From: an uncultured bacterium
Lineage (GTDB): Bacteria > Schekmanbacteria > GWA2-38-11 > J061
Length of the DNA: 64,000 bases
Direction: 5' to 3'
Assembly: GCA_964549305.1 (NCBI GenBank)
Contig: CAZJVM010000003.1
Coordinates: 31,380-95,379, forward strand
Within the stretch, counting starts at the first letter, position 1, and each line of letters starts with the position of its first letter. The notes beneath the pieces were generated by a model. It saw nothing but the letters and a program-made list of their open reading frames with translations, made no database searches and was not told the DNA's origin. Of this stretch, positions 13,192-57,648 are shown piece by piece. A program made the translations under genes and the position numbers.

Positions 13192-13227
13192 AAATCTGAA
13201 TTCGTCCTCAGAAACACTTAAAACTTT

Positions 13228-14640: not shown

Positions 14641-14656
14641 TTTTAATTGATTGCTT

Positions 14657-18445: not shown

Positions 18446-18449
18446 TTGT

Positions 18450-19999: not shown

Positions 20000-20133
20000 A
20001 AACTTAAAAGTTCTTCCTCATTAATGTTGAAGTTACTGAATTTTTTTATAATTAGTCCGATTAGCCCTGTTCGAAATTTAAATTTTTTAAAAATTGAGTA
20101 TTCGACATAAATTTTAAATAAAATTATCCACAA

Positions 20134-21564: not shown

Positions 21565-21570
21565 AACAGA

Positions 21571-22974: not shown

Positions 22975-23110
22975 TTTGAGTTAATATAACAGATATAATA
23001 ACTTCAGCAAAACTTTACTTTTAGAAAAATTATTTCGACAATAATCACTAATTTTTCAATGATATTTTTAGTTTGCCGATTGTGTTGTTTTTTAAAAAGG
23101 TAAAATCCCA

Positions 23111-23863
23111 ATGGAAAAAGATGTTTATTCCGAGTTTCTGAATCTCGAAAAAAATCACTGGTGGTTTCTTGGAAGAAGAAGCATTTTCTTTAGCCTTTTG
23201 GATAAATTTTTGGACGGCAGAAAAGATTTGAATATAATCGACGTGGGATGCGGTCCGGGGGAGATGATTGAACCCCTTGAAAAATACGGTAATGTAACTG
23301 CCTGTGATATCACATTCGATGCCCTTGATTTTTGTTCGGAAAGGGGTTTCAACCTGCTTATGCTTGCAGACGGAAGCAGACTTCCCGTTAAGGATGAAAG
23401 TTATGACCTTCTCTCCCTCTTCGATACACTTGAGCATATCGACGATGATGTGTCAGTCCTCAGGGACTCATACCGTGTGCTCAAAGACGGTGCATTCGTG
23501 ATTATAACGCTTCCCGCGTATAATTTTCTTTTCAGCAATAACGACCGCGCGGCACATCATAAAAGGCGTTACAGCGCCGGCGAGATAAGCAGAAAGGCGC
23601 AGGTTGCCGGATTTAATGTAAGAAAGGTTACCTATATCAATACATTTCTTTTCCCGGTGATTTTTTCTGCGCTAATTTTGATAAAAATAAAGGAAGCTAT
23701 TTTTCCTGTTGCAAATCCGGATAAAACGAATATTTCTTTTTCGGTTCCCCAAATAATTAACAGCATACTGGCATCTATTTTTTGTTTTGAAAGCAGGATT
23801 CTCAAGAATATATCATTTCCATTCGGACATTCTCTCGTATGCATAGCGCAAAAGAAAAAATAA
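23111..23863 (+). CDS. Class I SAM-dependent methyltransferase.
   Basis: IIDVGCGPGEM motif I and a LFDTLEHI region, with a hydrophobic C-terminus. Confidence 0.7.
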   Translation: MEKDVYSEFLNLEKNHWWFLGRRSIFFSLLDKFLDGRKDLNIIDVGCGPGEMIEPLEKYGNVTACDITFDALDFCSERGFNLLMLADGSRLPVKDESYDLLSLFDTLEHIDDDVSVLRDSYRVLKDGAFVIITLPAYNFLFSNNDRAAHHKRRYSAGEISRKAQVAGFNVRKVTYINTFLFPVIFSALILIKIKEAIFPVANPDKTNISFSVPQIINSILASIFCFESRILKNISFPFGHSLVCIAQKKK

Positions 23864-39975: not shown

Positions 39976-41913
39976 TTATTTCTTTTCCTTAAAGCTGTAT
40001 GATATGAGGCGTGCCGAGTTTGCCACTACCACGATTGACCCGATATTGTGGACAATCGCGCCTCCGATTGGTCCGAGAAGCCCTGAAGAGGCGAAATAAA
40101 GTGCAAAAGCGTTTATAATTATTGATATGGAAAGACTCTGCTTGATTATCGTTATGGTCTTCTTGCCGATTGCTATTCCTTCGGGTACCTTTGAAATATC
40201 GTCGGAGACAAGGGCAATGTCCGCAGATTCTATTGCTATGTCGGTGCCTCCCGCGCCCATTGCTATTCCCACATCGGCAAGGGCAAGGGCAGGAGCGTCG
40301 TTTATGCCGTCGCCAATCATTGCCACTATTTCCCCTGAATCCTTGATTTTAGATATATGTGCCACTTTGTCCTCTGGAAGCAATTCCGCCTCCACTGAGT
40401 CAAAGCCTATTCCGTGGGCAACCTTTTGTGCCGATTCCCTGCGGTCTCCCGTGAGCATAACAATATTTTTTGCGCCGAGCTTTTTAAGGTCTTCTATGGT
40501 TTCCGAAACTTCCTCCCTTATAGTGTCGGAAATGCTTATCATCCCCGCGAATTCCCCGTTTAAAGCCACGCTTATTACCGTATTTCCTTCTTTTGATTTA
40601 TCCCCGATATAGGAAAGCGATTCACTGCTCATATCAATATTTTCTTCCCTGAACATAAGCGGATTTCCGATTACGATTTTATCTCCTCCGCTTATGACTT
40701 TTACGCCCTTGCCTACGAGGGTTTCGCTCTCATCGGGTGCCATAATAATCATTCCCTTCTCATCCGCCTTTGCAAGCACCGCCTTTGCAAGTGAATGAGT
40801 GGAATGCTTTTCCGCCATCGCTGCAAGCTCGAGCACAGCGTCTTCGCTGAATCTTCCCACGGATTTCACTTCGCTCACCATCGCTTCGCCGAGAGTGACA
40901 GTTCCCGTTTTATCAAAAACAAAAGATGTGAGTTTTCCCATAGATTCAAGAATTGCGCCGCCTTTAATGAGTATCCCCTTTCTTGCGGCATTTCCGATTC
41001 CCGCAACTACTGCCGTGGGAGTGGCAATTACAAGGGCGCAGGGACAGGCAACGACAAGTATGGAAACAGCCCTTATGATTTCTCCCGTTACGAGATAAAC
41101 AGCGGCGCTGAAAAGAAGTATGGCAGGAGTAAACCATCCCGAGAAACGGTCCGCAATTCTCTCGATAGGCGGTTTTTCCGCCTGCGCTTCCTTTACCATA
41201 TCGATTATCTTCGCGAGCGTTGTCTGTCCTCCTACTCTTGTCGCTCTTATTATGAGAACTCCGTTTTTGTTGATGGTGCCGCTGAAAACTTCACCACCTT
41301 CCTCTTTGTTTACCGGAAGGGGTTCTCCCGTGATTGCCGATTCGTCCACTTCTGCAAACCCTCTCTCAACAATGCCGTCAACGGGTATTTTTCCACCCGC
41401 TTTTGCAATGATGAGTTCTCCTCTTCTTACATCTTCCACCGGAACAGTCATTTCCCTTCCGGTCCTGATTACCGTTGCGAAATCGGGAGTGATTTCGATG
41501 AGTTTTCTTATGGCATCTCCGGTTTTTGCAATCGTAAGATCTTCGAGAAGTTCGCCTACATTCATCATTAGTACAACTATTGCGCCGGCCATATATTCTC
41601 CCACCCATATTGAAGCGAAGAGGGCGAGGGTGACCAAAAGTTCGGCATTAAGCCGTTTATCTTCGAAGATTGCCCTGATTGAATTTTTTATGATTGGAAA
41701 TCCGCTCAACACGCAGGCGGCAAGAGAAAGCTTTATTCCGGGCGCGGTTTTGTCTCCGCCTAAGAAAAAGGATAAAGCGATAAGAACAATTGAAAGGACG
41801 GGGGAGAAGAAGGGCTCAATCCGTTCGGTTTCCATAAGCCATGAATTTTCACCGCACTTCTCCCGCTCTTTTATGTTGCTTTCAATGACTGCTTCTCTGC
41901 TAATGTCGTGCAT
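39976..41913 (-). CDS. P1B-type heavy-metal translocating ATPase with no fused N-terminal metal-binding domain.
   Basis: TM6 CPCALVIATP, DKTGTVT phosphorylation site, GDGINDAP hinge, TGEP actuator motif. Confidence 0.85.
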   Translation of the reverse strand: MHDISREAVIESNIKEREKCGENSWLMETERIEPFFSPVLSIVLIALSFFLGGDKTAPGIKLSLAACVLSGFPIIKNSIRAIFEDKRLNAELLVTLALFASIWVGEYMAGAIVVLMMNVGELLEDLTIAKTGDAIRKLIEITPDFATVIRTGREMTVPVEDVRRGELIIAKAGGKIPVDGIVERGFAEVDESAITGEPLPVNKEEGGEVFSGTINKNGVLIIRATRVGGQTTLAKIIDMVKEAQAEKPPIERIADRFSGWFTPAILLFSAAVYLVTGEIIRAVSILVVACPCALVIATPTAVVAGIGNAARKGILIKGGAILESMGKLTSFVFDKTGTVTLGEAMVSEVKSVGRFSEDAVLELAAMAEKHSTHSLAKAVLAKADEKGMIIMAPDESETLVGKGVKVISGGDKIVIGNPLMFREENIDMSSESLSYIGDKSKEGNTVISVALNGEFAGMISISDTIREEVSETIEDLKKLGAKNIVMLTGDRRESAQKVAHGIGFDSVEAELLPEDKVAHISKIKDSGEIVAMIGDGINDAPALALADVGIAMGAGGTDIAIESADIALVSDDISKVPEGIAIGKKTITIIKQSLSISIIINAFALYFASSGLLGPIGGAIVHNIGSIVVVANSARLISYSFKEKK

Positions 41914-41922
41914 TCTAATTCC

Positions 41923-42594
41923 CTATTTCCACGAGAAATCAAGTTTAAGAAAGCTTCCAAGGAAGATGAATATGGTCATTATTGCCGCAGTCAATGCTTC
42001 GCCTGCAAATATCAACCCAAAGAGAAAGATTGCTGCCAAAAGTTCGGGCAAAATCTTTTTTTTCAGGATTCCTTCAAAAATCGCGTTTTTAAGCAGAGGG
42101 AAAAGCCCCATCACCGTAATTACGATTAAAAATCCTTCATCAAGATTATCATTCATCGGTACTGTCTGATTTATAAGCAAAAGGACGCTCATAAAGATAA
42201 GCGCAAACCAATCCTGCAGAGGGTTGTTGAATATTCTGTGGACAAGAGTGTTTTCATCGGAACTGTGCTCGTGATGGTGTGCGTGGTGAACTTTGTGGGA
42301 GTGTTCGTGCACGTGATGATATGCCCTTGATTCAAAACGGCTCTCTTTGTGGCTATGGTCAGAATGAAAATGCTCGTCTAAGGTGTCGTGGTTGTGGTCG
42401 TGTCCGGTGAATGATTCTTCATCATTGTGGTTATGTTCGTCATGGCGGTCGTGTTCATCGTTATGTTCGTGGTGGTTGTGCCCTTCGTGTCCGTGACTGT
42501 GCTCTTCACCCGAACCGTGAGAATGGGAAGATTTCTTAACCTTTTGTCCCGATGAGGTTTTCTTGAAGATATCGTCTCTGTTTATATCGTGCAT
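41923..42594 (-). CDS. His-rich metal-binding membrane protein, homologous to the N-terminal TM helices of the adjacent P1B ATPase.
   Basis: Residues 20-120 are very rich in H/E/D (HSHGSGEEHSHGHEGHNHHEHNDEHDRHDEHNH...). The C-terminal roughly 90 aa (FPLLKNAIFEGILKKKILPELLAAIFLFGLIFAGEALTAAIMTIFIFLG) align with the ATPase N-terminus (FPIIKNSIRAIFEDKRLNAELLVTLALFASIWVGEYMAGAIVVLMM). The 3' end overlaps the ATPase start by 11 nt. Confidence 0.6.
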   Translation of the reverse strand: MHDINRDDIFKKTSSGQKVKKSSHSHGSGEEHSHGHEGHNHHEHNDEHDRHDEHNHNDEESFTGHDHNHDTLDEHFHSDHSHKESRFESRAYHHVHEHSHKVHHAHHHEHSSDENTLVHRIFNNPLQDWFALIFMSVLLLINQTVPMNDNLDEGFLIVITVMGLFPLLKNAIFEGILKKKILPELLAAIFLFGLIFAGEALTAAIMTIFIFLGSFLKLDFSWK

Positions 42595-42630
42595 CTTTTC
42601 TACTCCCGATTAATTCTTAATTTATCATAG

Positions 42631-43782
42631 TCAGGCAGTTGCACTGCCGGGTTTTTGTGTTTTCTTTTTTGCTTTCTTTGCAGGTTGTTTAGCTTTTTCC
42701 TCCATCTGTTTCGCATAATCGAGAACCTGCTGAAACTTTCCTTTTGAAAGTTCTGCATCCTCAAAGGGAGTTCTTCTCATTCTGAATCCGAGAGTAAGCT
42801 CGCTTGCAAGGCGTACATCTTCCTCTGTGACTTCCTTTCTTCCGTCGTAGGCGGCTTTTGTCTTGGCGCCTCTCGTTATGATAATATCAGGCCTGTGCCC
42901 GTCAACGTCAAGCTCAATGCACATACGGGCGATGATACGCAGAAAATATTTTGAAATTTCCACTTTTTCAAGATTCTTTTTTGCCTGAGCTATCTTTTTG
43001 GTTATTTCTTTGTTCTGCTTATCGTATCTTGATTTGAAAAGAATCGGGTCCTCTTCGAATTCGCGGATTCGTTTTGCGATGAGCATTCTTGAATTTATGT
43101 CGGAAAGCCCTTTCACTTCAACGTGGAAAGCGAGGCGGTCATGAAGCTGGGGGCGAAGCTCGCCTTCTTCGGGATTCATCGTGCCGGCAAGAATGAAGTT
43201 TGCCGGATGGGAAAGTGAAACTCCCTCGCGCTCAACGATATTTACTCCCATTGCCGCTGAATCGAGAAGCACATCCATTATGTGGTCGTCAAGAAGGTTG
43301 ATGTTGTCAATATAAAGAATACCGCGGTTCGCTTCCGCGAGAATTCCCGTCTCAAGGGCTTTGATTCCTTCCTTTATTGCGCGCTCGATGTTAAGGGTGC
43401 CAACGACTCTGTCTTCTGTTGCGCCTACGGGGAGTTCCGCTATGTGCATTTTTTGTTTGACGCCATTGAGCTTTCCGCCCTTATCGACAGTTTCCCTGCA
43501 TATGGAGCACATCTTGGCGGTTTCATTGGGATTGCAGTGAAAACGGCAGTCTTTGACTGCGGCAATTTCCGGCAGTACATCTGAAAGACCTCTTACGGCA
43601 ACGGTTTTTCCCGTGCCTCTTTCACCTCTTATTAGTACTCCTCCTATCTGAGGATTTATGGCATTTAGCAGAAGCGCCATCTTCATCTTTTCCTGTCCCA
43701 CTATTGCCGAGAAGGGGAAATTGGTTCTTGCCGAGGAAAAAGCGCCGGTAGTTGATTCCTTCTTTTTCTTTTTATCCTTCAT
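42631..43782 (-). CDS. Class I chelatase AAA+ subunit (ChlI/BchI-like), copy 2.
   Basis: [13 protein letters not shown], Walker [56 protein letters not shown]. Confidence 0.8.
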
Positions 43783-43801
43783 TTATAATCTCCGTAAAAA
43801 T

Positions 43802-45847
43802 TTATCTTACAGTTTGAGTTCCCTGAATTTCAACCTGCTCAAAAGCCATTTTCTTTTCAAGAGTTATGAGTGAGCCGAGACTCTGATAATTTAACTGGTC
43901 AATTCGGTAGTATTTTGCCGACAAGGAGTCCGCTATGTCCTTTGCAAAACCGTAGGAGAAGTTGATGAAGCTCATCTTCTTCGTTACTTCCGTATCGATT
44001 ACCACTGAAAATACGCCTTCGGAATATACCATTTCGGCCAGTTTTTTTATCTCTTCCATGGGGTCCGATTCAGGTACTATGGGAACATTTGCTCTGCCGT
44101 CTGTAAGAAGCACGAGAAGGGGAATTATGGTAGGGTCTTTCTTCATTTCGTTTTTAATGAGATTCATTGCCTTCATAAGTCCGAGCCCAAGAGGAGTCTT
44201 TCCGCCTGTCGGCAGAGTGGTAAGCATTTTTTTTGCAAGCTCCACTCCGTTTGTGGGAGGCAGGATAACCTGCGCGTCGTTGCCCCTGAAGGCAACCATC
44301 GCAATCCTGTCCCTGCTCTGGTAGGCATCCATCAGAAGGGAAAAGACAGTTCCCTTGGCACATTCCATTCTGTCCATCGCGCCCATTGTGCCGCTTGCAT
44401 CCACAAGAAGCACAATCAGCGAAGACACCTTGCTCTGCCTTACTTTTTTGCGGATGTCCTCTTTGCGAATGAGAAGAGCGTGAGCGGATTCGTTCTTTTC
44501 CCTTCTTCTTTTTTGATGAGGCGCTGCCGAGCGCACCGTTGCGTCAAAAGCGATGTCATTGATGTCGTCTCTCGGGATGGAATGTTTGATATATCTTCCC
44601 TTGCGCCCCGATGTTATTGATTTTATCCTTTTCCCCGAACCGGAACGTGTTTTTCGGTCGGCTTTTTTTCTCGTCATCTGCTTCGGGATTTCAACGGCAG
44701 TGCCTATTCGGTGAATCTGTCCTTCGATGGCGTCCTCCTGCTCATCGGATGCTTCCATCTCGGTGTCCGAATCTGAGGGAGGCATAATATCCTCCATCTC
44801 CTGTGAAAGTTCATCTATAAGCTGGTCCATCATTTCATCGTTTGCAGTGTCTTCTCCGTAAGGCAGCGCTCGTATTCTGAAGGGAAGTATAAGCTCTCCC
44901 GCTTTTTTAATGTGGTTGTTGTTAAGCTCTGCTTCTTCGTCAAAGGCAGCAAGCGTCGCGGCGGTTTTTAAAATCATAGTTTCGGGTCTGTGCCCTTCCA
45001 CATCGAGTTCCTTGCACATCTTACACACGAGAAGCATCGTTCGGTCTGAGGTATCTATGTTTTTAAGCGCTTTCTGGGCACGTAAAATATGCTTTCTGAG
45101 AGCTGAACTCTTTCTTTCGTATTTTTTCCTGAATGCTTCGGGTCTGTTTTCGAAGTTGTTTCTGAGGTTCGTAATGTCAACCCTTTCCTCAACGCTTTCA
45201 AGGGCTTTCACTTCCACGTGAAGCGCTATTCTGTCAAGAAGCTGAGGACGAAGCTCGCCTTCTTCAGGATTCATTGTGCCGATGAGAATGAAGCGCGAAG
45301 GATGGGAGAAGGAGATACCCTCCCTTTCTACGGTGTTTACGCCCGATGCCGCAGCATCGAGAAGCACATCCACAACGTGGTCATCGAGGAGGTTGATTTC
45401 GTCTACATAAAGAATTCCCTGATTTGCCTCGGCGAGCATTCCCGGTTCGATTACTTTTTTGCCGAATTTTACCGCCTGCTCGATGTCGAGGCTTCCCACG
45501 AGACGGTCTTCCGTAAGCCCCAGTGGAAGGTCGATTACCCGAATCTGCCTTTTTGCTATTTTCAGTTTTTCCCCTTCCATTACATCCTTTTTGCAGTTTG
45601 GGCAAAGGTCGGTGAAAATATGCGGGTTGCAGTTGAAGGGGCATCCTTGCACAACATCCACCGGTGGCAGGATTTCGGCAAGAGCCCTTACGAATGTTGA
45701 TTTTCCCGTACCCTTTTCCCCCCTTATGAGGACGCCGCCTATTTTTGGGTTGATGGCATTGAGCGTGAGAGCAAGCTTCATATTTTCCTGTCCTACCATT
45801 GCGGTGAAAGGATAAAGAAGTCTTTTAGCCGTTATTCTTTTTCCCAT
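43802..45847 (-). CDS. Class I chelatase D subunit (ChlD/BchD-like: AAA+ plus acidic linker plus vWA/MIDAS).
   Basis: N-terminal ChlI-like AAA+ module with an intact Walker A (GEKGTGKS). Acidic/Pro linker ([32 protein letters not shown]). C-terminal vWA with [15 protein letters not shown]. Confidence 0.8.
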
Positions 45848-45848
45848 T

Positions 45849-46922
45849 TTATTTAAGTTCCATTCCTTTTTCTTTTGAAAGCCGGTTGAGAACTTCGTCT
45901 ATGAGATTTATGTGATGGTCTTCAGGTTTGAAAGGTATGCGCTTTACCCTGAAGGTAAGTATGAACTTTGCGGCGGTTTTTATGTCTGCCATTAAGAGCT
46001 TTTTCCTTCCCCTCATTGCGGCTAGAGTGAGCGCAGTTTTAATTACCATCGTGTCCGCCCTGTGCCCTTCCACTTCGAGCTCCTGGCAGAGACGGCAGAC
46101 AAGTTTCAGTGCCTTTTCGGAGAATGTTACCGAGCTGAAATTCTTTCCCGCCTTCATTATTTTTTTTCTCAAAGCATCGCTTTGTCTGGAAGACTTTTCA
46201 TTAAAGGCAGTCGGGTCGGATTCGAATTCGTTTCGAAGCAGAGTTATGTTGACGCGGTCATCTACATTCTTAAGTCCTTCCACATCCACGTGTATGGCAA
46301 TTCTGTCAAGAAGCTGTGGTCGAAGTTCGCCTTCTTCTGGATTCATTGTGCCGACAAGAATGAAGCGCGAAGGATGGACAAAGGATATGCCTTCCCTCTC
46401 TACGACATTTATTGCTGAAGTTGCCGCGTCGAGAAGCACATCGACGACGTGGTCGTCGAGAAGGTTTATTTCATCTACATATAAAATTCCGCCGTTCACT
46501 TCGGCAAGTATTCCCGGTTCAAGTTCACGTTTGCCTTCCTTTATTGCCCTTTCAATGTCGAGACTTCCTATGAGACGGTCTTCAGTAACTCCCAGGGGAA
46601 GGTCAACGACTTTCATCTTGCGTTTTTCAAGGGGAAGCTTTTCGCCTTTTTCAATTGCAGACGCGCAGGACGGACATAGCGCGGAATCAGATCCCGGTGA
46701 GCAGTTAAAGGGGCATCCTTTGACTACTGTTACCTCAGGAAGTATTTCAGCAAGCGCCCTTACCGCAGTGGACTTTCCCGTGCCCTTTTCCCCTCTGATT
46801 AAAACTCCGCCGATGGAAGGATTTGCGGCATTAAGCGTCAGGGCAAGTTTCATATCTTCCTGTCCTACGATTGAAACAAATGGGTAAAGTGTCCTTTTGA
46901 CCTTTTCTGTTTTTTTCTCCAT
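45849..46922 (-). CDS. Class I chelatase AAA+ subunit (ChlI/BchI-like), copy 1.
   Basis: [68 protein letters not shown]. Confidence 0.8.
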
Positions 46923-46937
46923 TGAGTAACTCCGTTT

Positions 46938-49900
46938 TTATTCTTCCTGTTCTTCTATCTCAGATTCTATCTCGAGATAGATTTTCTTCAGCTTTTCTAT
47001 TTCTTCTTCTGTAGCATCCCATATTCCCCTGTTGAATGCTTCCATAAGCCGGTTAAGCTGATGCTCCACAGCCCAGACATTCTCCTTCATCATGCTTTTT
47101 CTGACATTTTCATCGAAGAGGTATTTTTCCGCAACCTGGCTCCATACCCAGTTGTCAACAGATTCCGATGTTGCCGACCACCCGATGAGATGCTCGACTC
47201 TTTGGCTGATGTTTTTCACTCCCCTGTATCCGCTCGATACCTGTCCCTCTATCCATTTGGGGTTGAAGAGTTTTGTCTTCGCTTCGTATTCCAGCGTGGA
47301 TTTAATGTTCTTCGTGCTTATGCGGTCTTTTGTGGTGTCAGCAACGAGAATGGAAGGTTTCGATTTTTTCTGCTTACCGCTTTTCCTTTTTACCGTTTCA
47401 ACGGATTTTGCCATACCGCCGAGAAACTCGTAGTAGTGGTCAAGGTCTGCCATTCCGTATTCGTCACTGCTTCTTACCTGCGCAACCACATCCACCTTGT
47501 CGAGCACTTCCCTGAATGTGTCCGTATTCGATACGGCGTGAAATGAATCTCCGTAGATGTGGGACATCTTTGCAATATGAAGGTTTGCTATATCTTCACT
47601 TTCCTCCCAACCCGATGTTTCGATTAGCTGAGTGACATCGGTGCCGTAGTTTGATGCCGAGGGACCGAATATCCTTGCGCGGGAGAGGGCCTCTGCCTGA
47701 TTTTTCGGTACTCCTTTATCAGTGAGCACCTTGCGTATTTCGTCTGAATGTTTTTTAACGAAATTTTTATCGTGCGGTTCATCCAAATCAGCGACAATGT
47801 TAAAGGCACGGTCTATGATTTTCAGCAGCACGGGGAAGGTGTCCCTGAATATGCCGCATATTTCCACTGCCACATCGAGGCGGGGCCTTCCTAATTTTTC
47901 AGGAGGTATCGCTTTTACGCCGACGAATTCGCCCGTGCCCGCCCATTTCGGCTCGACTCCGAGATAGTGAAAAATCTCTGCGACGGTTTCGCCCTGAGTT
48001 TTCATCGTTTCGAAACCCCAGAGAATGACTCCCACCGTTTCGGGAAATTTTCCTTCGTTTTCTTCCTTGTATCCTTCTATTACCTGTTTTCCGATGAGAA
48101 GTCCCCTTTCAACTGCCGTGCGTGTGGGTATGAGGTCGGGATTGAACTGATAAATATTTCTTCCCGTGGGAATAACGGCAGGGCTTCGCACAGGGTCGCC
48201 TCCCACTCCCGGCTTTATGTATTTGCCGGAAAAAGTTGCGAGCAGACTGTCTATTTCAAAATTGTTCGAAAGGTTTGATGCAATCTCACCGGCAAAGCCC
48301 AGAGTCTTTTCGAACTCGTTTATCTGTTTGGAGTTGGGTTTATTACTGATAAACTTTTTAATTGTTTTTTTAACAGACGGTGATTTTGCTTTGAGATAGT
48401 CAAGAAGAATCTTTTTGGATTTTTCTTCCACTTCTTCAAGCACTATGCCCATAGGCCTTCCGTCGGGGCCGATTTTCGATGGTTTGTCGCGGGCATCTTC
48501 CCAGTCGATTCCTTCCGCCTCAGACACGAGTCTGTGAAGCGAAAGAGTTTCTCCTTTGTCAAATCTAACTATGCCCATTACATAATCGGCCAATTCTTCG
48601 TCCTTGAAGGAGTTGCCGAGGACGTGTACTCCCTTTGTCATAAGCGTGCCCTTCATTTCGGTAAGGGAGTCGTAAAGCTCGTTTATGTCAATATCCGCGG
48701 CTTCAATGTCGGCAAGGTTTTCTTCTTTTGCCATTTCAAGGATTTTTTCCTTTATCGCCTTTGCCTGAGCGGGGCTTTGTTCCTTCTGCTGGAAATAATT
48801 ATGTATTTCCGTTTCCATTTCAAAAAGCCGCCCGTAGAGATTTGAAACAATCATCGGAGGCGTCATATAATCCACAGTCGTCGCGTGGCTTCTTCTGCGC
48901 GCAATGGAAGATTCCGAGGGATTTGAGCAGGTGTAGTAATAGGCGTGAGGGATATCGCCTATAAGAAGGTCGGGATAGCAGTTTTCAGAAAGGGCAACCT
49001 GTTTTCCCGGTAAAAATTCCAATGTGCCGTGGGTGCCGAAATGAACGAGAAGGTCAGCCTGAAATTCCTTCTGAAGCCAGAGATAGTATGCAAGATACTG
49101 ATGATGAGGCGCTATTCCCGTATCGTGATAAGTCTTCGAAGGGTCTTCGAAATATCCCCTGGGCGGCTGAAATCCTAAAAATATCTTCCCAAAAGTAATT
49201 CCCGGTATGAGGACATCTTCATCGTCGGCGAGAATGTTTCCCGGAGATTCACCCCATTGCTCGATGATGTCCTTCCTGTTATGTTCGGGAATTTCGTTAA
49301 GCCATTCATTATAAGCGCTTACGGGCACCTTGAAGGCATTTTCCTTGATTTTTTGCAATCCTGTCCAGTTGCTCAGGTTCACGAGATTTTTCTTTACCAT
49401 AAGGCGGATGAACTCCTGACGTGTTTTCGGGTATCCCGAAACATCGTAACCCTCTTTTTTCATCCTGTCGAAAAGTCTTATCAAACTGTCGAAGGTGTCG
49501 AGGTTTCCCGCGTTTCCTATGTTGTCTTTTCCGGGAGGATAATTGAAAAGAACAAAAGCCACTTTCTTTTCACTGTTTTTAAGGTTTCTGAGCTTAACCC
49601 ATCTTGCCGTTCTTTCCACTGCCCTGTCCACCCGGTCTTCGATTGCCTGCATTACGCGGATGGTCTTCCCGTTTTCCGAAAGGTCCTTGTGACCTGATAT
49701 AAGGACGCCTTCAATCAGTCCGTCAAGCTCGGGAAGTATTGCCGTAATCGTTGTCTCAAGAGGCGCCATTCCTTCACTCTTTTCCCTCCACTCGTCAACG
49801 GTTGTGTATCCCATATTAAGATACTTCATAATCGGGACATTCAGTCTTGCGGCAAGATCTATGAATGCTTCGTAATCGCCGCCGAGCGGTCCTCCTTCGA

Positions 49901-50840
49901 TTCTGAAAAAGAGAAAGCTTATGATTGCTTCAACTATTGATTTGCCCTTTGACATAAACTGGCGTTCCATATTTTTCATATTTTCAGAACCTGATGTGAG
50001 GATTGTAATCGCGCCGAGTCCACGTTTCTCGAGAGCTTCTATGACTGCTTCAAGGTCGCCTGTGTCCTGTGTCTGATAGCGTTGAGTGTAGAAGAGGATA
50101 CCCACATAAGGATTTTTGACTGTTTTAGTGAGTTCGGTCTTTTGAATGAGTCCGGATTTTTTGTACCAGCTGAGATATTCATCGACGGTGGCGTATATTT
50201 TCTCCGATTTCGGATGATAAAGCGCGCCCTGCTTGATTTCTTCGGGAGGTTTGTATTCGACCTTGTATCCGTAATATTCGGAGAGGATGAACATAAAAAA
50301 TTGCGTAATGTTGTCTCTGCCTCCTGCAAAGAAATATTTCCATGCCCTGATGTAATTCGCGGCATCCTTCCATTTTCCGAATCTCATAACCTTGAGAATC
50401 GCGTCTGCCATTACAAGAAGTTTGCGCACTTCCATAGTGCTCTTGCTTGAATTCATTAATCCTCTGAGGATTCCAACGGCTTTTCCGAGCATTGAGTCGC
50501 TTTTTTCCATAGACATCTTGGGAAGCTGAAATTTTCCAATCTTCGTAAGGCTCATTCCGCGGGGCATTGAAGCGAGGACAATATAATTCTTTTTTTCGCT
50601 TTTGTGTTTTTCGAGTATGTCGAGAATTTCATCGTCAAACACCATATTGACGATTACCGTATCGGCTTCCTTTATGCTTTTTTCGATTTTTGAAAGATGT
50701 TCTTTCTGAAACTTCTGGTGGCGAAGGCAGAAGAAATAATCGAGTTTTACTTCACCCTTGAATTTCTTTTCAAGTTCATTTGATGCCTCGGCAAGAGACT
50801 TACTGAAGGTATAGTCTCCAATTATGGCAGTAAAATGCAT
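46938..50840 (-). CDS. Class I chelatase large subunit (CobN/ChlH family), 1300 aa.
   Basis: CobN/ChlH-family blocks throughout, including LLVHFGTHGTLEFLPGK, PNLYGRLFE and VKLRNLKNSEKKVAFVLFNYPPG. Confidence 0.85.
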   Translation of the reverse strand: MHFTAIIGDYTFSKSLAEASNELEKKFKGEVKLDYFFCLRHQKFQKEHLSKIEKSIKEADTVIVNMVFDDEILDILEKHKSEKKNYIVLASMPRGMSLTKIGKFQLPKMSMEKSDSMLGKAVGILRGLMNSSKSTMEVRKLLVMADAILKVMRFGKWKDAANYIRAWKYFFAGGRDNITQFFMFILSEYYGYKVEYKPPEEIKQGALYHPKSEKIYATVDEYLSWYKKSGLIQKTELTKTVKNPYVGILFYTQRYQTQDTGDLEAVIEALEKRGLGAITILTSGSENMKNMERQFMSKGKSIVEAIISFLFFRIEGGPLGGDYEAFIDLAARLNVPIMKYLNMGYTTVDEWREKSEGMAPLETTITAILPELDGLIEGVLISGHKDLSENGKTIRVMQAIEDRVDRAVERTARWVKLRNLKNSEKKVAFVLFNYPPGKDNIGNAGNLDTFDSLIRLFDRMKKEGYDVSGYPKTRQEFIRLMVKKNLVNLSNWTGLQKIKENAFKVPVSAYNEWLNEIPEHNRKDIIEQWGESPGNILADDEDVLIPGITFGKIFLGFQPPRGYFEDPSKTYHDTGIAPHHQYLAYYLWLQKEFQADLLVHFGTHGTLEFLPGKQVALSENCYPDLLIGDIPHAYYYTCSNPSESSIARRRSHATTVDYMTPPMIVSNLYGRLFEMETEIHNYFQQKEQSPAQAKAIKEKILEMAKEENLADIEAADIDINELYDSLTEMKGTLMTKGVHVLGNSFKDEELADYVMGIVRFDKGETLSLHRLVSEAEGIDWEDARDKPSKIGPDGRPMGIVLEEVEEKSKKILLDYLKAKSPSVKKTIKKFISNKPNSKQINEFEKTLGFAGEIASNLSNNFEIDSLLATFSGKYIKPGVGGDPVRSPAVIPTGRNIYQFNPDLIPTRTAVERGLLIGKQVIEGYKEENEGKFPETVGVILWGFETMKTQGETVAEIFHYLGVEPKWAGTGEFVGVKAIPPEKLGRPRLDVAVEICGIFRDTFPVLLKIIDRAFNIVADLDEPHDKNFVKKHSDEIRKVLTDKGVPKNQAEALSRARIFGPSASNYGTDVTQLIETSGWEESEDIANLHIAKMSHIYGDSFHAVSNTDTFREVLDKVDVVAQVRSSDEYGMADLDHYYEFLGGMAKSVETVKRKSGKQKKSKPSILVADTTKDRISTKNIKSTLEYEAKTKLFNPKWIEGQVSSGYRGVKNISQRVEHLIGWSATSESVDNWVWSQVAEKYLFDENVRKSMMKENVWAVEHQLNRLMEAFNRGIWDATEEEIEKLKKIYLEIESEIEEQEE

Positions 50841-50858
50841 ATTAATCTCCTTACGGGG

Positions 50859-51308
50859 TTAAATGCTCAGTTTTTCAAGAATTTTCCTGACTTTATCAAG
50901 TGAGTTTCCAAGCTCGCTTACTTCTTCATCTGTGAGGCGGCTAAAAATATTGAGAAGTTCTTCACGGCGCTTCATCATAAATTCCATCCTCATTTCCACG
51001 CCTTTCTCTGTAAGATTCACCTTTACCACTCTGCGGTCATTTTTATCTCTTTCTCTTTCTACGATGCCTTCCTTAACCAGTTTGTCGATTGCTTCTGTCA
51101 TGCTTGGAAGGGTTACGCCCGCGTTTTTAGCCAATTCACCCATTGTGAAGGGGCGGGATTCGGTAAAGGCGGAAAGGGCTTTGATTTTGGAGAGACTTAG
51201 GTCATAGCTTAATTTTACGCCGTTTAGAGAAACAACCTTTTTTGTAAACTCAATAAAGAAATCTTTTACCTTGAGGATATTTTCTTCAAGATTTTTCGCT
51301 CTCTGCAT
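50859..51308 (-). CDS. MarR-family transcriptional regulator.
   Basis: Winged HTH: MGELAKNAGVTLPSMTEAIDKLVKEGIVERERDKNDRRVVKVNLTEKG. It is the first gene of the chelatase operon. Confidence 0.8.
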   Translation of the reverse strand: MQRAKNLEENILKVKDFFIEFTKKVVSLNGVKLSYDLSLSKIKALSAFTESRPFTMGELAKNAGVTLPSMTEAIDKLVKEGIVERERDKNDRRVVKVNLTEKGVEMRMEFMMKRREELLNIFSRLTDEEVSELGNSLDKVRKILEKLSI

Positions 51309-51325
51309 TTATTTTACCTCTTTTT

Positions 51326-51356
51326 ATTTAGATAAATAATATTTCAGTATCTAAAT
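51326..51356. promoter_or_regulatory. Perfect 9-bp inverted repeat ATTTAGATA-N13-TATCTAAAT in the divergent MarR/GGDEF promoter region; candidate MarR operator.
   Basis: Read directly from the sequence. Left arm at 51326-51334 and right arm at 51348-51356, 18-48 nt upstream of the marR start. Confidence 0.4.
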
Positions 51357-51463
51357 ATTAATTAAATAAATATTATTGTCAAGAGAAAGAAATAAGATAT
51401 TTAAACTTTTTTCCCCTTTTGCATTAGAAATTAATATTGAAGCGATAAAAAACGATACTAAGA

Positions 51464-53104
51464 ATGAAAAAAAAATTATTTTCCGGATTAAGAACAATTC
51501 ATTTATATTTGCTTTTGGAAACATCGCCTATGAAAGATATCAAAGTATTTTTTTCGTTTAAGGCAAGGCTGGCATTTGCGGTTTTTCTTACAGCGCTTCT
51601 TTTTATCCATACCCCGGTAAAGAACTTCTTTGCAGTTGCAATCGTTGTGGAATTTATCTGTTACGGAATGTTTTGGGGATTTCTTTTAAAGAAGACCTTT
51701 TTGTCGAAAATCAAATGGTCTCTTTATATCGCCGCGTCAACTGATATTCTCATTGTGATTGCTCTAATCATTGCCGGCGGAGGCAATGCGGGCGCGCTGT
51801 TTCCACTCTTGTGCTGCTTTACGGGTTTTTATGCGTACTTTGCGGGATTGAGAGTGTCTCTTGCCGTGGCATTTCTCTCGACTCTCTTTTATCTCGGCGC
51901 GGGAAGTTTTTTCGGGGAAAGCGGTAAAACGATTTCCGAGCTATTTGTAAGAATCGGACTTTTTTATCTTGTTTCATTTTTTATAGGACTGCCTGTTGAT
52001 AAGACGGAAAAGGAAAAAGAAAATGTAAAATTCCTGAGAAGGCGGCTCGATGGCGAGATTGATAAGAGCGAGAAGTTGAAGGATAAGATTAAAAAGCAGG
52101 CAAAAGAAATTGTCGTTATGCATGAGCTTGGAAGAATAATGAATTCCGAAAACAGCTCATTGAAGGAAATATGCGATAAAGTCGCGTTCATTCTCGCGCG
52201 CCATCTTCAACTTAAGAGTTTCTGCATCTTTGTGCTTAATGAAGAAACTTCACAGCTTGAAATAAAATCCTCCATAGGCCTTCCAAAGGGAATCGAAAGA
52301 AAGGTCATTATCAATATAGGCGAAGGTATTACGGGAAAAGTCGCCAAGACGGGCGATCCAATGCTAATCAATGATGTTACGAAGGATGAAAGATTTACCT
52401 ATTTCGGCGGATTGTGCAGGAATATAAAATCTTATCTCTGCGTGCCTATGACAGTGGACAGAAAGGTTGTAGGAGTAATCAGTGCCACAGAAGATTCGCC
52501 GGGATATTTCACAGTTCCCGATATGAATCTCCTTGCCGATGTGGCAAGCCATTTGTCTGTTGCAATGCAGAACATCAAATATATGGATAAACTGAAGAGT
52601 ATGTCTTCAATGGACGGTTTGACGGGATTGTGCAACCATCGATTCTTTTATCAGAGACTGAAACAGGAGATATCTGCCGCGGGCAGATTCAAGGACAAGA
52701 TAAGCATTGTAATGCTCGACATAGACTTCTTCAAGAAAGTCAACGATACATACGGACATAAAGCGGGAGACCGCATATTGGTGGGAGTTGCTTCCATTCT
52801 AAAAAATGCCTGCAGGGAATCAGACCTTGTCGCACGATACGGAGGTGAGGAATTTGCCCTTATTCTTCCCCGTACTTCAAAGGAAAGGGCAATGGCAATC
52901 GCGGAACGAATAAGGGAGAGAATCAGGAAAAGAAGTTTTTCAATAAGCAATGATGGTGCGAAAATTGCCGTAACCTTGAGCGCCGGTATTTCGGAATATC
53001 CCGCTGACGGTAAAAGTTCGAACGAGATTGTGCAGAAGTCCGATGAAGCGCTCTATAGCGCGAAGCACTCGGGAAGAAACAGAGTCGAACTTTACGCCGG
53101 ATAG
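51464..53104 (+). CDS. Membrane-anchored GAF-GGDEF diguanylate cyclase.
   Basis: N-terminal TM segments, a coiled-coil, a GAF-like region, and a GGDEF domain with RYGGEEF and the KxxND/D-x-L-T-G-L blocks. The true start is possibly the MKDIKV Met at 51530. Confidence 0.85.
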   Translation: MKKKLFSGLRTIHLYLLLETSPMKDIKVFFSFKARLAFAVFLTALLFIHTPVKNFFAVAIVVEFICYGMFWGFLLKKTFLSKIKWSLYIAASTDILIVIALIIAGGGNAGALFPLLCCFTGFYAYFAGLRVSLAVAFLSTLFYLGAGSFFGESGKTISELFVRIGLFYLVSFFIGLPVDKTEKEKENVKFLRRRLDGEIDKSEKLKDKIKKQAKEIVVMHELGRIMNSENSSLKEICDKVAFILARHLQLKSFCIFVLNEETSQLEIKSSIGLPKGIERKVIINIGEGITGKVAKTGDPMLINDVTKDERFTYFGGLCRNIKSYLCVPMTVDRKVVGVISATEDSPGYFTVPDMNLLADVASHLSVAMQNIKYMDKLKSMSSMDGLTGLCNHRFFYQRLKQEISAAGRFKDKISIVMLDIDFFKKVNDTYGHKAGDRILVGVASILKNACRESDLVARYGGEEFALILPRTSKERAMAIAERIRERIRKRSFSISNDGAKIAVTLSAGISEYPADGKSSNEIVQKSDEALYSAKHSGRNRVELYAG

Positions 53105-56026: not shown

Positions 56027-56728
56027 TCATTTATTTTTCAGAAGCAGGGTTATTTCTCCCTTCAGGTTGTCTAAAGCGCCTGAGAGGAGTAAAGACTGTA
56101 CGGTGTCCGTAACTACTTCCTCGTGAATTTTTGTCAACTCACGACAAATACAAATTTCTCTATTACCTGCAATGTTGGAAATTTCTTCAATAAGCCGTTT
56201 CACTCTTTTCGGTGATTCAAATATAATTACGGTTTCTTTGCGGGAGGCCAAATCCATAAGCACCTTTTCTCTTTTTCCTTTTTTTCGTGGCAGAAATCCT
56301 TCAAAGTAAAACCTCGACGTATCAAATCCCGAAACGGAAAGAGCGGTTATGGGCGCCGATATGCCTCCTATTGGGGAAACCTTGATTTCTTCCTTTATGG
56401 CATCGATTATGAGGGATGTGCCCGGGTCTGAAATTCCGGGCATTCCCGCCTCGGAAACAAGAGCTACATTCTTTCCCGATTTTAATTCTTCGATAATCTT
56501 TTTACCCTTATATCTGCTATTGGCGCTGTAATAACTGGTGAGGCGTTTTTTTATTTTGTAGCGGTTTAACAGCTTTAGCGTTTTTCGTGTATCCTCCGCC
56601 GCGATAATGTCGCAGGTCCTGAGGGTTTTAATCGCTCTTATGGTAATGTCTTCGAGATTTCCGATGGGCGTGGAAACTATATAAAGAGTTCCTGCCGATG
56701 GATTTACGACACTGTTTCCGCCGTTCAT
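56027..56728 (-). CDS. rsmI: 16S rRNA (cytidine1402-2'-O)-methyltransferase.
   Basis: Tetrapyrrole-methylase fold: LYIVSTPIGNLEDITIRAIKTL..IAAEDTR, EAGMPGISDPG. Confidence 0.85.
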   Translation of the reverse strand: MNGGNSVVNPSAGTLYIVSTPIGNLEDITIRAIKTLRTCDIIAAEDTRKTLKLLNRYKIKKRLTSYYSANSRYKGKKIIEELKSGKNVALVSEAGMPGISDPGTSLIIDAIKEEIKVSPIGGISAPITALSVSGFDTSRFYFEGFLPRKKGKREKVLMDLASRKETVIIFESPKRVKRLIEEISNIAGNREICICRELTKIHEEVVTDTVQSLLLSGALDNLKGEITLLLKNK

Positions 56729-57648
56729 TTAAATTTATCCGGCACTTCGAAATGAGTAAGGTCTTTCAGAGTATGAAACTGTTTTTTTATTTCTTCTTTA
56801 TTGAGGTTTGCAGTTTTCTCTATGCTGAAATCCTGTACGGCGAATGATGCCATTACAGTGCCTGCTACTACTGCTTCATTCAGGGTTTTATTGTCTATCT
56901 TATCCTTTGATGCGATGTAACCGACAAATCCTCCCGCAAAACTGTCTCCCGCGCCTGTTGGATCGGAAACTTTTTTTAAGGGAACCGCGGGAACAAAAAA
57001 TTGCTTGTCTTTTGAGAAAAGAAGCGCGCCATATTCTCCTCTTTTTATGACAACATATTGCGGACCCATATTAATAATGCTTTCCGCCGCATCGGTGATA
57101 TTGTTTTTCCCTGAAAGCATTTTTGATTCCGTATCGTTAATGAGCAGAGCATTGATTTTTCCTATTACTTTTTTGAGCATATCGTTTTTACCGGTAATCC
57201 AGAAATTCATTGTGTCAAGAGCGATAAATTTACCATTTCCGGTTTTCTCGAGCACCCGGAGTTGAAGTTCGGGGTCTATATTGCCGAGGAAAAGGCAATT
57301 GCAGTCCGAATAGGATTCCGGTATTGATGGAACGAACTCTTCGAAAACATTGAGATGAGTTTCAAGGGTAATCGCCTCGTTGAGATTTTCTCCGTATTCG
57401 CCCTTCCATCTGAAAGTGTTGCCGTCGCTTTTAATTTCAAGACCTTCGAGGTCGATGTTCTTCGATTTTAAAAGTTCGATATGCTCCTGCGGAAAATCAC
57501 TTCCTGCAACTGCCACAAGTTTTACTTTGGTAAAGTAAGATGCCGCAACGGAAAAATAAACCGCGCTTCCTCCAAGAGCGTTTTCCACGCTTCTTTCCGG
57601 TGTTTTGACCGAATCAAGTGCTACTGACCCCACTGTTACTATGCTCAA
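56725..57648 (-). CDS. PfkB-family carbohydrate/nucleoside kinase.
   Basis: DPTGAGDSFAGGFVGY and an N-terminal GG motif. Overlaps rsmI by 4 nt. Confidence 0.8.
   Translation of the reverse strand: MSIVTVGSVALDSVKTPERSVENALGGSAVYFSVAASYFTKVKLVAVAGSDFPQEHIELLKSKNIDLEGLEIKSDGNTFRWKGEYGENLNEAITLETHLNVFEEFVPSIPESYSDCNCLFLGNIDPELQLRVLEKTGNGKFIALDTMNFWITGKNDMLKKVIGKINALLINDTESKMLSGKNNITDAAESIINMGPQYVVIKRGEYGALLFSKDKQFFVPAVPLKKVSDPTGAGDSFAGGFVGYIASKDKIDNKTLNEAVVAGTVMASFAVQDFSIEKTANLNKEEIKKQFHTLKDLTHFEVPDKFK

Follow-up and report, generated by a model that had tools for sequence, protein, structure and literature searches.

A seven-gene operon on the minus strand of a 64,000-nucleotide stretch of DNA from an uncultured bacterium of the Schekmanbacteria (GenBank assembly GCA_964549305.1, contig CAZJVM010000003.1, positions 31,380–95,379 of the forward strand; 'the window' is this whole stretch) encodes a complete and apparently competent class I chelatase together with a MarR-family repressor, a His-rich membrane protein and a P1B-type heavy-metal ATPase. 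The link between the chelatase genes and genes for metal transport is genuine: it recurs in relatives from three phyla, in varied gene orders and with the transporters swapped. We give an even chance to the reading that the operon specifies a MarR-repressed, ATP-driven class I chelatase of a new ChlH-like lineage, which would insert a divalent transition metal rather than Mg into a tetrapyrrole of the porphyrin type and would be co-expressed with a membrane module that manages the metal pool. Class I chelatases are, to our knowledge, known for only two biosynthetic reactions, the insertion of Mg into protoporphyrin IX and of Co into hydrogenobyrinic acid diamide, and for the reverse reaction of HmuS. 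A literature search found no paper on the present ChlH clade or on its link to MarR and metal pumps, and by the account of the HmuS study, annotation is not possible for most of the CobN/ChlH/HmuS superfamily in bacteria and archaea (PMC12583661). The operon is of interest because it makes the question of orphan class I chelatases in anaerobes directly testable. Its features are the following.

51355–51382, minus strand: sigma-70-like promoter, with –35 box TTGACA (51382–51377), a spacer of 16–17 nt and –10 box TAATAT/AATATT ending at 51355/51354.
51325–51357, strand-neutral: putative MarR operator, TATTTAGATA-N13-TATCTAAATA, over the –10 box and the predicted transcription start.
50859–51308, minus strand: MarR-family repressor, 149 amino acids, first gene of the operon (PF01047, E = 6e-13).
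46938–50840, minus strand: ChlH/BchH-like large subunit, 1300 amino acids, with a DUF3479 head (PF11965) and a CobN-Mg_chel body (PF02514).
45849–46922, minus strand: ChlI-1, 357 amino acids, AAA+ protein with Walker A and B motifs and a Cys4 insert (Pfam and NCBIfam).
43802–45847, minus strand: ChlD, 681 amino acids, with an AAA+ module, an acidic linker and a von Willebrand factor A (vWA) domain carrying a metal-ion-dependent adhesion site (MIDAS) (Pfam and NCBIfam).
42631–43782, minus strand: ChlI-2, 383 amino acids, AAA+ protein with Lys-rich tails, Walker B D-N and a Cys4 insert (Pfam and NCBIfam).
41923–42594, minus strand: His-rich four-helix membrane protein, 223 amino acids, outside Pfam and NCBIfam families.
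39976–41913, minus strand: P1B-type heavy-metal ATPase, 645 amino acids, CtpC/P1B-6-like (TIGR01525; in Pfam, E1-E2_ATPase and Hydrolase only).

The seven open reading frames were recovered at the coordinates of the first-pass annotation, a reading of the letters of the window and its open reading frames, and the families assigned there were upheld by Pfam and NCBIfam for every gene except that of the His-rich protein, which matches no family in either database. The genes are separated, from marR to the ATPase gene, by 18, 15, 1, 19, 36 and 9 nt, so that of the packing described earlier as '0–36 nt gaps or overlaps' the tightness stands, at 1–36 nt, and the overlaps do not. A GGAG/GAGG-like ribosome-binding site lies 5′ of each of the seven starts. 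The TTGACA/TAATAT pair is the top minus-strand promoter match between 39600 and 51600, agreeing at ten of 12 positions, and no promoter within the operon in the same scan is better; terminator-like hairpins were not found in the intergenic gaps. The short gaps and the lack of an internal promoter better than that of marR argue for a single transcript. The G+C content of the operon (0.44–0.475 between 40000 and 50000, against about 0.36–0.41 in most of the window) is raised, which could reflect acquisition by transfer or plain coding constraints.

The perfect inverted repeat noticed earlier in the marR promoter is real. Its arms, TATTTAGATA (51325–51334) and TATCTAAATA (51348–51357), are 10 nt long and 13 nt apart; they are the only exact copies of this 10-mer in the 64 kb, and copies with one mismatch occur at the chance rate (seven found, 7.4 expected). 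Because the surroundings are very AT-rich and hold 14 further imperfect repeats, the inverted repeat alone is weak evidence, and it gains weight because it overlaps the –10 box and the predicted start of the best promoter. A CTTGACA box stands at the same position 5′ of every orthologous marR examined and is followed by repeats. In loci of Schekmanbacteria and in several of Thermodesulfobacteriota (L001, L004 and L016) the –10 box is directly followed by the half-site ATTTAG/CTAAAT, and TATCTAA repeats, related to the half-site, lie at the marR promoters of L017 and L014. The repeat at 51325–51357 is thus probably the MarR operator. The marR gene is divergent from a gene for a GAF-GGDEF diguanylate cyclase (51464–53104), with which it shares a 155-nt AT-rich intergenic region holding the operator-like repeat; this neighbour is not kept in the relatives.

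The regulator itself has the winged-helix domain (PF01047) of the MarR family and a palindrome, the putative operator, in its own promoter. It contains neither His nor Cys, and an alignment of its orthologues shows no conserved His or Cys; against the AdcR model it scores 34 bits (cutoff 175), and it lacks the metal site of AdcR/ZitR-type repressors. The first-pass description of the repressor as metal-responsive therefore finds no support, and an organic ligand is more likely because residues for metal sensing are missing.

Conservation of the gene neighbourhood in relatives had been set beforehand as a test of the chelatase–transporter link. Neighbourhoods were collected from 11 exact-protein look-ups and by scanning species-representative genomes and metagenome contigs. 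With duplicates removed, the close clade is represented by 32 loci, which belong to Schekmanbacteria, Thermodesulfobacteriota and Spirochaetota; they span 10-kb flanks, and many contigs are shorter. The link was found again and again. An orthologous MarR gene adjoins that of ChlH in 22 of the 27 loci that have at least 1 kb of upstream sequence, and a metal transporter is present in eight of the 11 well covered loci, in at least five arrangements and with transporter families interchanged at the same position. Among all 32 loci, MarR was counted in 22, ChlI-2 in 20, DsbD_2 in ten, the ATPase in six, the His-rich membrane protein (HisTM) in five, FeoB in five and a NicO-like protein in two; ChlD is present in about 15 (16 were counted, and the match in L093 was rejected as a housekeeping YifB/ComM-type protein). 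The order in Schekmanbacteria is MarR-ChlH-I-D-I-HisTM-ATPase, with or without a following DsbD_2, that in a Thermodesulfobacteriota metagenome-assembled genome (MAG) is MarR-HisTM-ATPase-ChlH-I-D, and a Spirochaetota single amplified genome has MarR-NicO-like(HX4DH)-ChlH-I-D beside two P1B ATPases. A further order is MarR-DsbD_2-ChlH-I-D-FeoB, with or without Fur and DtxR-FeoA, and one locus (L098) holds all components, as MarR-DsbD_2-ChlH-ChlI-ChlD-HisTM-ATPase-FeoB-DtxR/FeoA. In another Schekmanbacterium (L090:3342-4769) a gene for a MATE efflux protein with a His-rich N-terminus (…HGHSHSHGHPHG…) lies between those of ChlH and ChlI-1 and may export the product or a metal complex. The ATPase of L014 was rejected as a part of the system: it has a lower score, lies on the opposite strand, is followed by a CsoR-like small protein (C...H-x3-C, by eye) and is probably an unrelated CopA.

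Outside the clade, homologues of the large subunit at 33–40% identity are accompanied by ChlD and sometimes ChlI, and never by MarR or the transporters. Such homologues are frequent in Alkanophaga, Methanolliviera, Methanoliparum, Methanodesulfokora, Archaeoglobi and Asgard archaea (L023, L025, L026, L030, L051, L058 and L117), where there are often two ChlH paralogues per contig, sometimes near a NifH-like gene; the alkane- and methane-metabolizing archaea among them presumably carry MCR/ACR.

The large subunit is best described, from profile scores and tree position, as neither a CobN nor a true BchH but a member of a third lineage. It matches PF02514 with 1177.5 bits over residues 167–1280, in addition to the PF11965 head, and passes the BchH equivalog model TIGR02025 (1037.9 bits, cutoff 829), while it stays below the cutoff of every CobN model (TIGR02257, 733 against 822; NF004646, 791 against 1468; six other models likewise). 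Among proteins of known structure it matches Synechocystis ChlH with 670 bits, ahead of CobN (473) and HmuS (443). One NCBI protein is 100% identical to it. It is about 29–30% identical to the BchH of phototrophs, about 30% to CobN, 33–40% to a wide range of proteins from archaea, Dehalococcoidia and clostridia and 48–89% to the members of a tight clade known only from MAGs and metagenomes; its nearest named relatives belong to Candidatus Schekmanbacteria (86% and 63% identity). A midpoint-rooted neighbour-joining tree, which carries no support values, divides the superfamily into CobN, BchH and a third lineage made up of the archaeal/clostridial group and the window clade, and so places the protein outside the BchH/ChlH clade. 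The earlier economical guess of cobalt, for a large subunit read as CobN/ChlH-like, finds no support in these results. In the annotated neighbourhoods we saw neither cob nor cbi genes, though the screen of the 32 loci used a fixed reference set that had no cob/cbi queries and would have missed them.

The active-site residues of the superfamily are kept in the large subunit: the motifs HFGTHG, GTLEF and NPSE are present, as are the equivalents of E625 and E660, which were placed by alignment to ChlH residues 599–701 and to the mutated positions of 6ytj, 6yt0 and 6ytn. The C-terminal active-site motif reads DLDHYYEFLGG. Seven aligned BchH sequences have mostly (I/V)(E/D)HYFD(T/S)LGG (P0102 with Gln for His), from which the window form differs; the residues of this H-Y-F-D motif we take to be H1174/D1177 of Synechocystis ChlH. 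The stretch ADLDHYYEFLGG agrees with the motif LSLDHxxEFMGG and recurs across the whole sister lineage. That motif is reported to be strictly conserved in the heme dechelatase HmuS family (PMC12583661). Since DLDHxxEFxGG is present throughout the archaeal/clostridial sister group, it is probably ancestral and not diagnostic. The N-terminus of the large subunit (MHFTAIIGDYTF) has no hydrophobic anchor and no signal peptide, hmuY- or hmuR-like genes were not found in the 64-kb window, and ChlI and ChlD adjoin ChlH; an HmuS-type anchor, hmu operon and AAA+-free setting are accordingly all lacking.

The remaining subunits complete the set, and the large subunit, the AAA+ subunits and the vWA/MIDAS adaptor named in the first-pass annotation are all present with their motifs, which suggests a competent enzyme. 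The model TIGR02442 ('putative cobaltochelatase') is the top match of ChlD and of both ChlI proteins, with all scores under the cutoff; ChlD reaches 726.7 bits with it and 491.9 bits with TIGR02031, both just below. In ChlD the AAA+ module is intact (Walker A GEKGTGKST, Walker B VDE, Cys4 insert), as is the vWA domain (VWA_2, E = 2.9e-11) with the MIDAS residues D-A-S-G-T ... PTGGKT ... TDG, and the pattern D-x-S-x-T ... T ... D is kept across the ChlD proteins of the clade. In ChlI-1 the Walker A (GEKGTGKST) and Walker B (DE) motifs are likewise intact, and the Cys4 insert is present. Its identity is 62% to ChlD AAA+ modules and 51–54% to ChlI-2-type proteins, and its occurrence is limited to the Schekmanbacteria loci (the window, L001 and L090) and to L094, a locus with a ChlH some 66% identical to that of the window; ChlI-1 is a lineage-specific, stand-alone duplicate of the ChlD AAA+ module with active-type motifs. 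ChlI-2, with 69–74% identity to the single ChlI of the Thermodesulfobacteriota and Spirochaetota loci, is the universal ChlI of the clade. It has a variant Walker A motif (GERGTGKT) and D-N in place of D-E in Walker B (around YIDNINLL), and D-N was found in all ten clade members examined, with D-E in relatives outside the clade. Because an E-to-Q change in Walker B abolishes the ATPase activity of CobS, ChlI-2 probably binds ATP without hydrolysing it. A D-N ChlI beside a fully intact ChlD would be the reverse of the division of labour in Mg-chelatase. The earlier reading of two ChlI plus one ChlD needs correction to this extent: the downstream ChlI is the universal one, and the upstream one is a copy of the ChlD module. 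The Cys4 insert (CxxC-x9/10-CxxC) of ChlI-1, ChlD and ChlI-2 had been thought to set the operon apart; the same insert is found in ChlI proteins of distant relatives among the clostridia, Dehalococcoidia and Asgard archaea.

The ATPase is a P1B pump by its score with TIGR01525 (591.8 bits, cutoff 346.25) and its FDKTGT and ACPCAL motifs. It has no HMA domain and begins with MHDISRE; CPC lies in transmembrane helix (TM) 4, T-x5-QS-x7-N in TM5 and HNIGS-x5-NS in TM6. The signatures YN-x4-P plus MxxSS for P1B-1 (Cu+) and QN-x7-K plus DxG-x7-N for P1B-2 (Zn/Cd/Pb), taken here as quoted in a secondary source (PMC4932525), fit neither TM5 nor TM6. Set against the signature N-x18-H-N-x-(S/T), the pump has CPC as in CtpC and HN followed by I-G-S, with a spacing of 20 by hand count; the first ATPase of L006 reads HNMSS at the TM6 motif. 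Homologues at 46–48% identity carry the NCBI name manganese/zinc-exporting ATPase (CtpC-type), and the TM motifs of the window pump resemble the H-N-x-(S/T) signature of P1B-6 pumps and of CtpC. An identity with the ferrosome pump FezB (P1B-6) was rejected: TM4 has CPC in place of D(Y/F)SCA, and the N-terminus is not R-rich.

The His-rich protein consists of an MHDINRD N-terminus, about 100 residues rich in His, Asp and Glu, four TM helices and a C-terminal ...DFSWK. It had been called chaperone-like. On profile comparison it is instead a paralogue of the N-terminal helices MA-MB-M1-M2 of the pump (hhalign probability 98.2%, E = 5.7e-14 over 94 columns, matching pump residues 29–123; BLASTP identity 36%, E = 1e-6), with which it also shares the N-terminal motif MHD(V/I)xR(D/E). 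A Met-His-acidic N-terminus forms the Ni site of HypA, and is no more than a lead for the MHD motif. The family was recovered by a full HMMER scan (an exact look-up gave no match and a word-indexed search with the membrane part gave one) and forms about ten clusters at 50% identity among 1.84 billion representatives, with the uniform architecture MHD(V/I)xRD, His/Asp/Glu-rich stretch, four helices and C-terminal ...FSW (P0242–P0251, L091:9283-9993 and L092:9503-9997 among them). Wherever neighbours are visible (L001, L005, L090, L091, L092 and L098) its gene lies directly 5′ of that of this type of pump, and in P0204 a homologous pump has a His-rich extension fused at its own N-terminus. A free-standing MarR-HisTM-ATPase set, with an orthologous MarR and the same promoter layout, occurs at L091:8773-11938 with no chelatase within 10 kb, so that the 'channelled' metal insertion proposed earlier is not borne out. 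In a Desulfobulbus MAG (L092:4994-11956) the HisTM-ATPase pair lies, again without a chelatase, directly 3′ of DUF4198-CbiM-x-CbiQ-ABC ATPase; the CbiM/Q/O importer, of the Ni/Co ECF type, is a hint to the metal of the pump.

Clues to the ring come from sister loci. The gene of a 48%-identical ChlH follows those of HemD and HemE and precedes a MamH-like MFS gene. That of a 54%-identical ChlH (L093:10001-20966) opens the row ChlH-MarR-NifH-like (two copies)-BchN-like-BchB-like(PCP_red)-FeoB, all in one direction, and that of a 58%-identical ChlH (L017:237-12413) follows two NifH-like genes, a fused N/B-like gene with PCP_red, a geranylgeranyl-reductase-family gene and a CbiX/ferrochelatase-like gene. 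In each of the last two clusters the genes, those of ChlH and its MarR included, run in one direction, and both look like the chlorophyll-style 'chelatase plus DPOR' set, here in non-phototrophic anaerobes. An FrhB/BciB-family gene lies near ChlH in one sister locus. Three loci of Thermodesulfobacteriota type (L004:1878-3317, L010:4518-5930 and L014:22436-23878) encode a protein of 471–481 amino acids that has a hydrophobic anchor at its N-terminus and weakly matches a ferrochelatase domain; adjacent are between one and three flavodoxin-like proteins with a hydrophobic, signal-like start; in L004 and L010 its gene also adjoins those of AFOR and a membrane Fe-S protein. None of these accessory genes of the relatives is present in the window. 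HemD/HemE or DPOR-like reductases in sister loci implicate a porphyrin-type substrate, and the sequences point to a porphyrin-type ring that is further reduced in some lineages.

Within the window two candidate tetrapyrrole genes were rejected. The TP_methylase match is RsmI (TIGR00096, 228 bits, cutoff 168), a 16S rRNA methyltransferase; the pair that it forms with the following PfkB kinase gene (56027–57648) shows synteny with a second Schekmanbacterium and has no relation to tetrapyrroles. The two B12-binding radical SAM proteins (20134–21564 and 23839–25350) are not BchE (104 and 126 bits, cutoff 481). They lie among glycosyltransferases in a region (12010–25350) that also encodes flippase-like and radical SAM/SPASM proteins, where the best radical SAM matches are weak ones to HpnJ and BchE, far below the cutoff. 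A search of the window with Rfam gave no match to a riboswitch, the cobalamin and NiCo types included, or to any other RNA.

Starting from the observed gene content, motif states, conserved linkage, homology of the His-rich protein with the pump, and operator position, we infer the following scheme, in which the direction of the reaction, the MarR ligand, the roles of the AAA+ proteins, export by the pump and the metal are all conditional. The operon would be repressed by a MarR dimer bound to the inverted repeat that overlaps the –10 box and the start site. An organic ligand would release the dimer, and the tetrapyrrole, with or without its metal, is the most plausible one. The cavity of the ChlH body would hold the macrocycle, ChlD would dock on ChlH through its vWA/MIDAS domain, ATP would be hydrolysed by the ChlD-type AAA+ modules (ChlD and ChlI-1), and ChlI-2 would serve as a nucleotide-binding, non-hydrolysing partner in the ring. 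The CtpC-like P1B ATPase would export excess metal, with the His-rich paralogue as a membrane-anchored metal buffer or hand-over partner, much as PacL1 is for CtpC; in relatives, RcnA/NicO-like permeases and FeoB may handle the metal supply. More tentatively, the operon could contribute the chelation step of an unrecognized tetrapyrrole-cofactor branch in non-phototrophic anaerobes, in which Fe, Ni, Co or Zn is inserted into a porphyrin, DPOR-like reduction in some lineages leads to a chlorin-type metallocofactor and metal supply is set by the dedicated pump, its His-rich partner and the permeases; we consider this reading less likely than not.

Several points weigh against the scheme of a transition-metal chelatase. 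P1B ATPases export from the cytosol, and by itself such a pump supplies nothing to a cytosolic chelatase; the MarR-HisTM-ATPase set that occurs alone indicates that the pump module can do without the chelatase, and the sub-lineages L007/L108 and L093 have no adjacent ChlI and ChlD (L108 is an orphan ChlH of the 48%-identical sub-lineage, with no informative neighbours). The motif DLDHYYEFLGG matches the dechelatase family of HmuS rather than BchH. No enzyme of tetrapyrrole synthesis or modification was found elsewhere in the 64-kb window, and the substrate link therefore rests on the sister loci. The tree of the large subunit is a simple neighbour-joining one, and all of the evidence is genomic, drawn from MAGs and metagenome contigs. 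The transporters, moreover, disagree on the metal: FeoB points to Fe, RcnA/NicO/CbiMQO to Ni or Co and the CtpC-like pump to Zn or Mn. Fur and DtxR in the relatives likewise point to Fe, and the His-rich stretches together with the CtpC-like pump to Zn, Ni or Co; the DsbD_2 proteins of the relatives have His-rich loops and weak matches to RcnA and NicO, and the HX4DH motif is that of the NicO-like protein of L006. A Mg transporter was seen in none of the loci examined, where the co-encoded transporters are all of transition-metal type. On balance Fe(II) would be the first guess, itself unlikely to be right, followed by Ni, Co and Zn, each somewhat less likely and level with one another, with any other metal improbable.

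Some of these points would be accommodated by a chelatase working in reverse, as a repair enzyme that frees a metalloporphyrin, with Zn, Co, Ni or Fe for example, of a metal that was wrongly inserted or scavenged, with MarR sensing the metallated ring and the pump and its His-rich partner disposing of the metal. The HmuS-family motif in place of the HYFD(S/T)LGG of true BchH, an exporter-type pump as the conserved partner and a MarR without metal ligands all suit such an enzyme, and a functional link between CobN-like proteins and FeoB is reported for the use of heme iron by Bacteroides (PMC6460266). HmuS, however, is AAA+-free, membrane-anchored and NADH-dependent, whereas the present ChlH is unanchored and is hardly ever without ChlD and ChlI; the motif, spread as it is across the archaeal/clostridial sister group, is probably ancestral; FeoB and NicO-like importers suit supply more than disposal; and no genes for outer-membrane or periplasmic porphyrin uptake were seen. 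We consider a repair enzyme unlikely. An ordinary cobaltochelatase for cobalamin, of the CobN plus ChlI/ChlD type and standing beside a Co/Ni homeostasis module, is rather unlikely too. It would explain why TIGR02442 is the best model for ChlD and both ChlI proteins, and would agree with the HisTM-ATPase pair beside CbiM/CbiQ/CbiO in the Desulfobulbus MAG, with an Asgard homologue near genes for B12-dependent methyltransferases and with the B12-binding radical SAM proteins encoded in the window. It is opposed by the large subunit, which passes the BchH cutoff, fails every CobN model (733 against 822 for TIGR02257) and lies outside the CobN lineage, by TIGR02442 scores under the cutoff, and by HemE and DPOR-like genes in sister loci, which speak for porphyrin and not corrin chemistry; cob/cbi biosynthetic genes were not seen in the annotated neighbourhoods, with no cob/cbi query made across the 32 loci. 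The late-insertion CobN route is, besides, aerobic, and anaerobe lineages normally use CbiK or CbiX.

The genes could also be chance neighbours, MarR-HisTM-ATPase being a self-contained efflux cassette in or beside which the chelatase genes have merely been inserted, with no common metal or function. The three-gene cassette does exist alone, where its MarR is an orthologue and its promoter is laid out in the same way. The ATPase family, moreover, far exceeds the ChlH clade in size, and unrelated genes often collect in metal-homeostasis islands. That the same MarR returns in 22 of 27 loci and a metal transporter in eight of the 11 well covered ones, in at least five arrangements, that the gaps are of 1–36 nt with no better internal promoter, and that the association is never found in relatives outside the clade make chance improbable. 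Highly improbable, finally, is a genuine Mg-chelatase for a chlorophyll-like pigment in non-phototrophs, as a vestige or precursor of (bacterio)chlorophyll synthesis. The large subunit does pass the BchH equivalog model and has ChlH as its best solved relative, and among the genes of sister loci are DPOR-like L/N/B genes, in which the BchB-specific PCP_red domain is present, one of the geranylgeranyl-reductase family and an FrhB-like one of the BciB family; where non-phototrophs have paralogues of BchH and DPOR, these have been interpreted as remnants of a phototrophic past (PMC11194577), and Schekmanbacteria carry RCCR/FDBR-like genes (PMC10151467). Yet the protein lies outside the BchH clade with HYYEF and not HYFD, no locus encodes a Mg transporter among its transition-metal ones, the two B12-binding radical SAM proteins of the window fall far short of the BchE cutoff (104 and 126 bits against 481), and bchM, bchE, bchG or reaction-centre genes were not seen in the window or the annotated loci.

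Should the operon indeed belong to an unrecognized branch of tetrapyrrole-cofactor synthesis, its chelatase would be the first of class I to act on a metal besides Mg and Co, and it would be a living relative of the enzymes that were brought together in the chlorophyll pathway. The clade is a well framed test case, with a compact operon that has its own regulator and operator and with co-encoded transporters that narrow the metal to a few candidates, and its natural Walker B variant informs the division of labour in the ChlI/ChlD motor. Identification of metal and ring would add a new metallo-tetrapyrrole, or reveal porphyrin repair or re-metallation in anaerobes, and would bear on the origin of the chlorophyll pathway. 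Sister loci tie the ChlH clade to DPOR-like reductases.

Among known systems, Mg-chelatase (ChlH/ChlI/ChlD or BchHID) is similar in having a large subunit with DUF3479 and CobN-Mg_chel domains, an AAA+ ChlI and a ChlD with AAA+ module, acidic linker and vWA/MIDAS domain, and the window protein passes TIGR02025 and keeps the E625, E660 and HFGTHG equivalents. Unlike Mg-chelatase, it belongs to a separate lineage about 30% identical to BchH and has HYYEFLGG for HYFD(S/T)LGG; its ChlI is D-N beside an intact ChlD, Cys4 inserts occur in all AAA+ modules, and the operon contains MarR and transition-metal transporters. Chlorophyll-pathway context is lacking in the window, with DPOR-like genes only in two sister loci. 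In those two loci the clade adjoins two NifH-like genes and BchN/BchB-like genes, and so resembles the Group VI NFL of Elusimicrobia and the DPOR-related proteins of non-phototrophs. A novel tetrapyrrole cofactor has been proposed for Group VI nitrogenase-like clusters, and BchH and DPOR paralogues occur in non-phototrophic Terrabacteria (PMC11194577); the reports on Group VI NFL, unlike the present loci, mention no chelatase, MarR or metal pumps, and the window has no NFL genes. With CobN plus a ChlI/ChlD-type motor (TIGR02442), or CobNST, the operon shares the occurrence of a class I chelatase outside phototrophs and TIGR02442 as the top model of ChlI and ChlD; it differs in scores under the cutoff, in a large subunit that is not CobN-like by profile or tree, and in its anaerobic hosts. 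Cobaltochelatases of the TIGR02442 type offer, according to the NCBIfam family description, a precedent for links to cobalt transport genes.

HmuS of Bacteroidota belongs to the same superfamily and has in common with the window ChlH the motif HFGTHG, the motif D-H-x-x-E-F-x-G-G, whose His and Glu face the active-site cation (PMC12583661), and a functional connection with FeoB-type iron transport. It is set apart by its membrane anchor, the lack of ChlI and ChlD, NADH, a Met-rich insertion, a heme site in the head/neck and the hmuYRSTUV operon (PMC12583661), and against the window protein the HmuS chain scores 443 bits to the 670 of ChlH. For the membrane module the closest parallel is the effluxosome of Mycobacterium tuberculosis, in which the Zn exporter CtpC, a CPC pump with the P1B-6-like motif H-N-x-(S/T), relies on PacL1, a membrane protein with a His-rich stretch (PMC13460109). 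In both systems a CPC-type pump without a CxxC domain is encoded directly after a small His-rich membrane protein, although the window pump has HNIGS for H-N-x-S/T and an N...HN spacing of 20, by count, for 18. PacL1 belongs to DUF1490 and has a single helix and, at its C-terminus, a short DLHDHDH motif, whereas the window partner has four helices, about 100 His-rich residues and the MHDxxR(D/E) motif shared with its pump; the two proteins are unrelated and their likeness is functional only, and the four-helix His-rich paralogue is a new kind of partner for a P1B ATPase.

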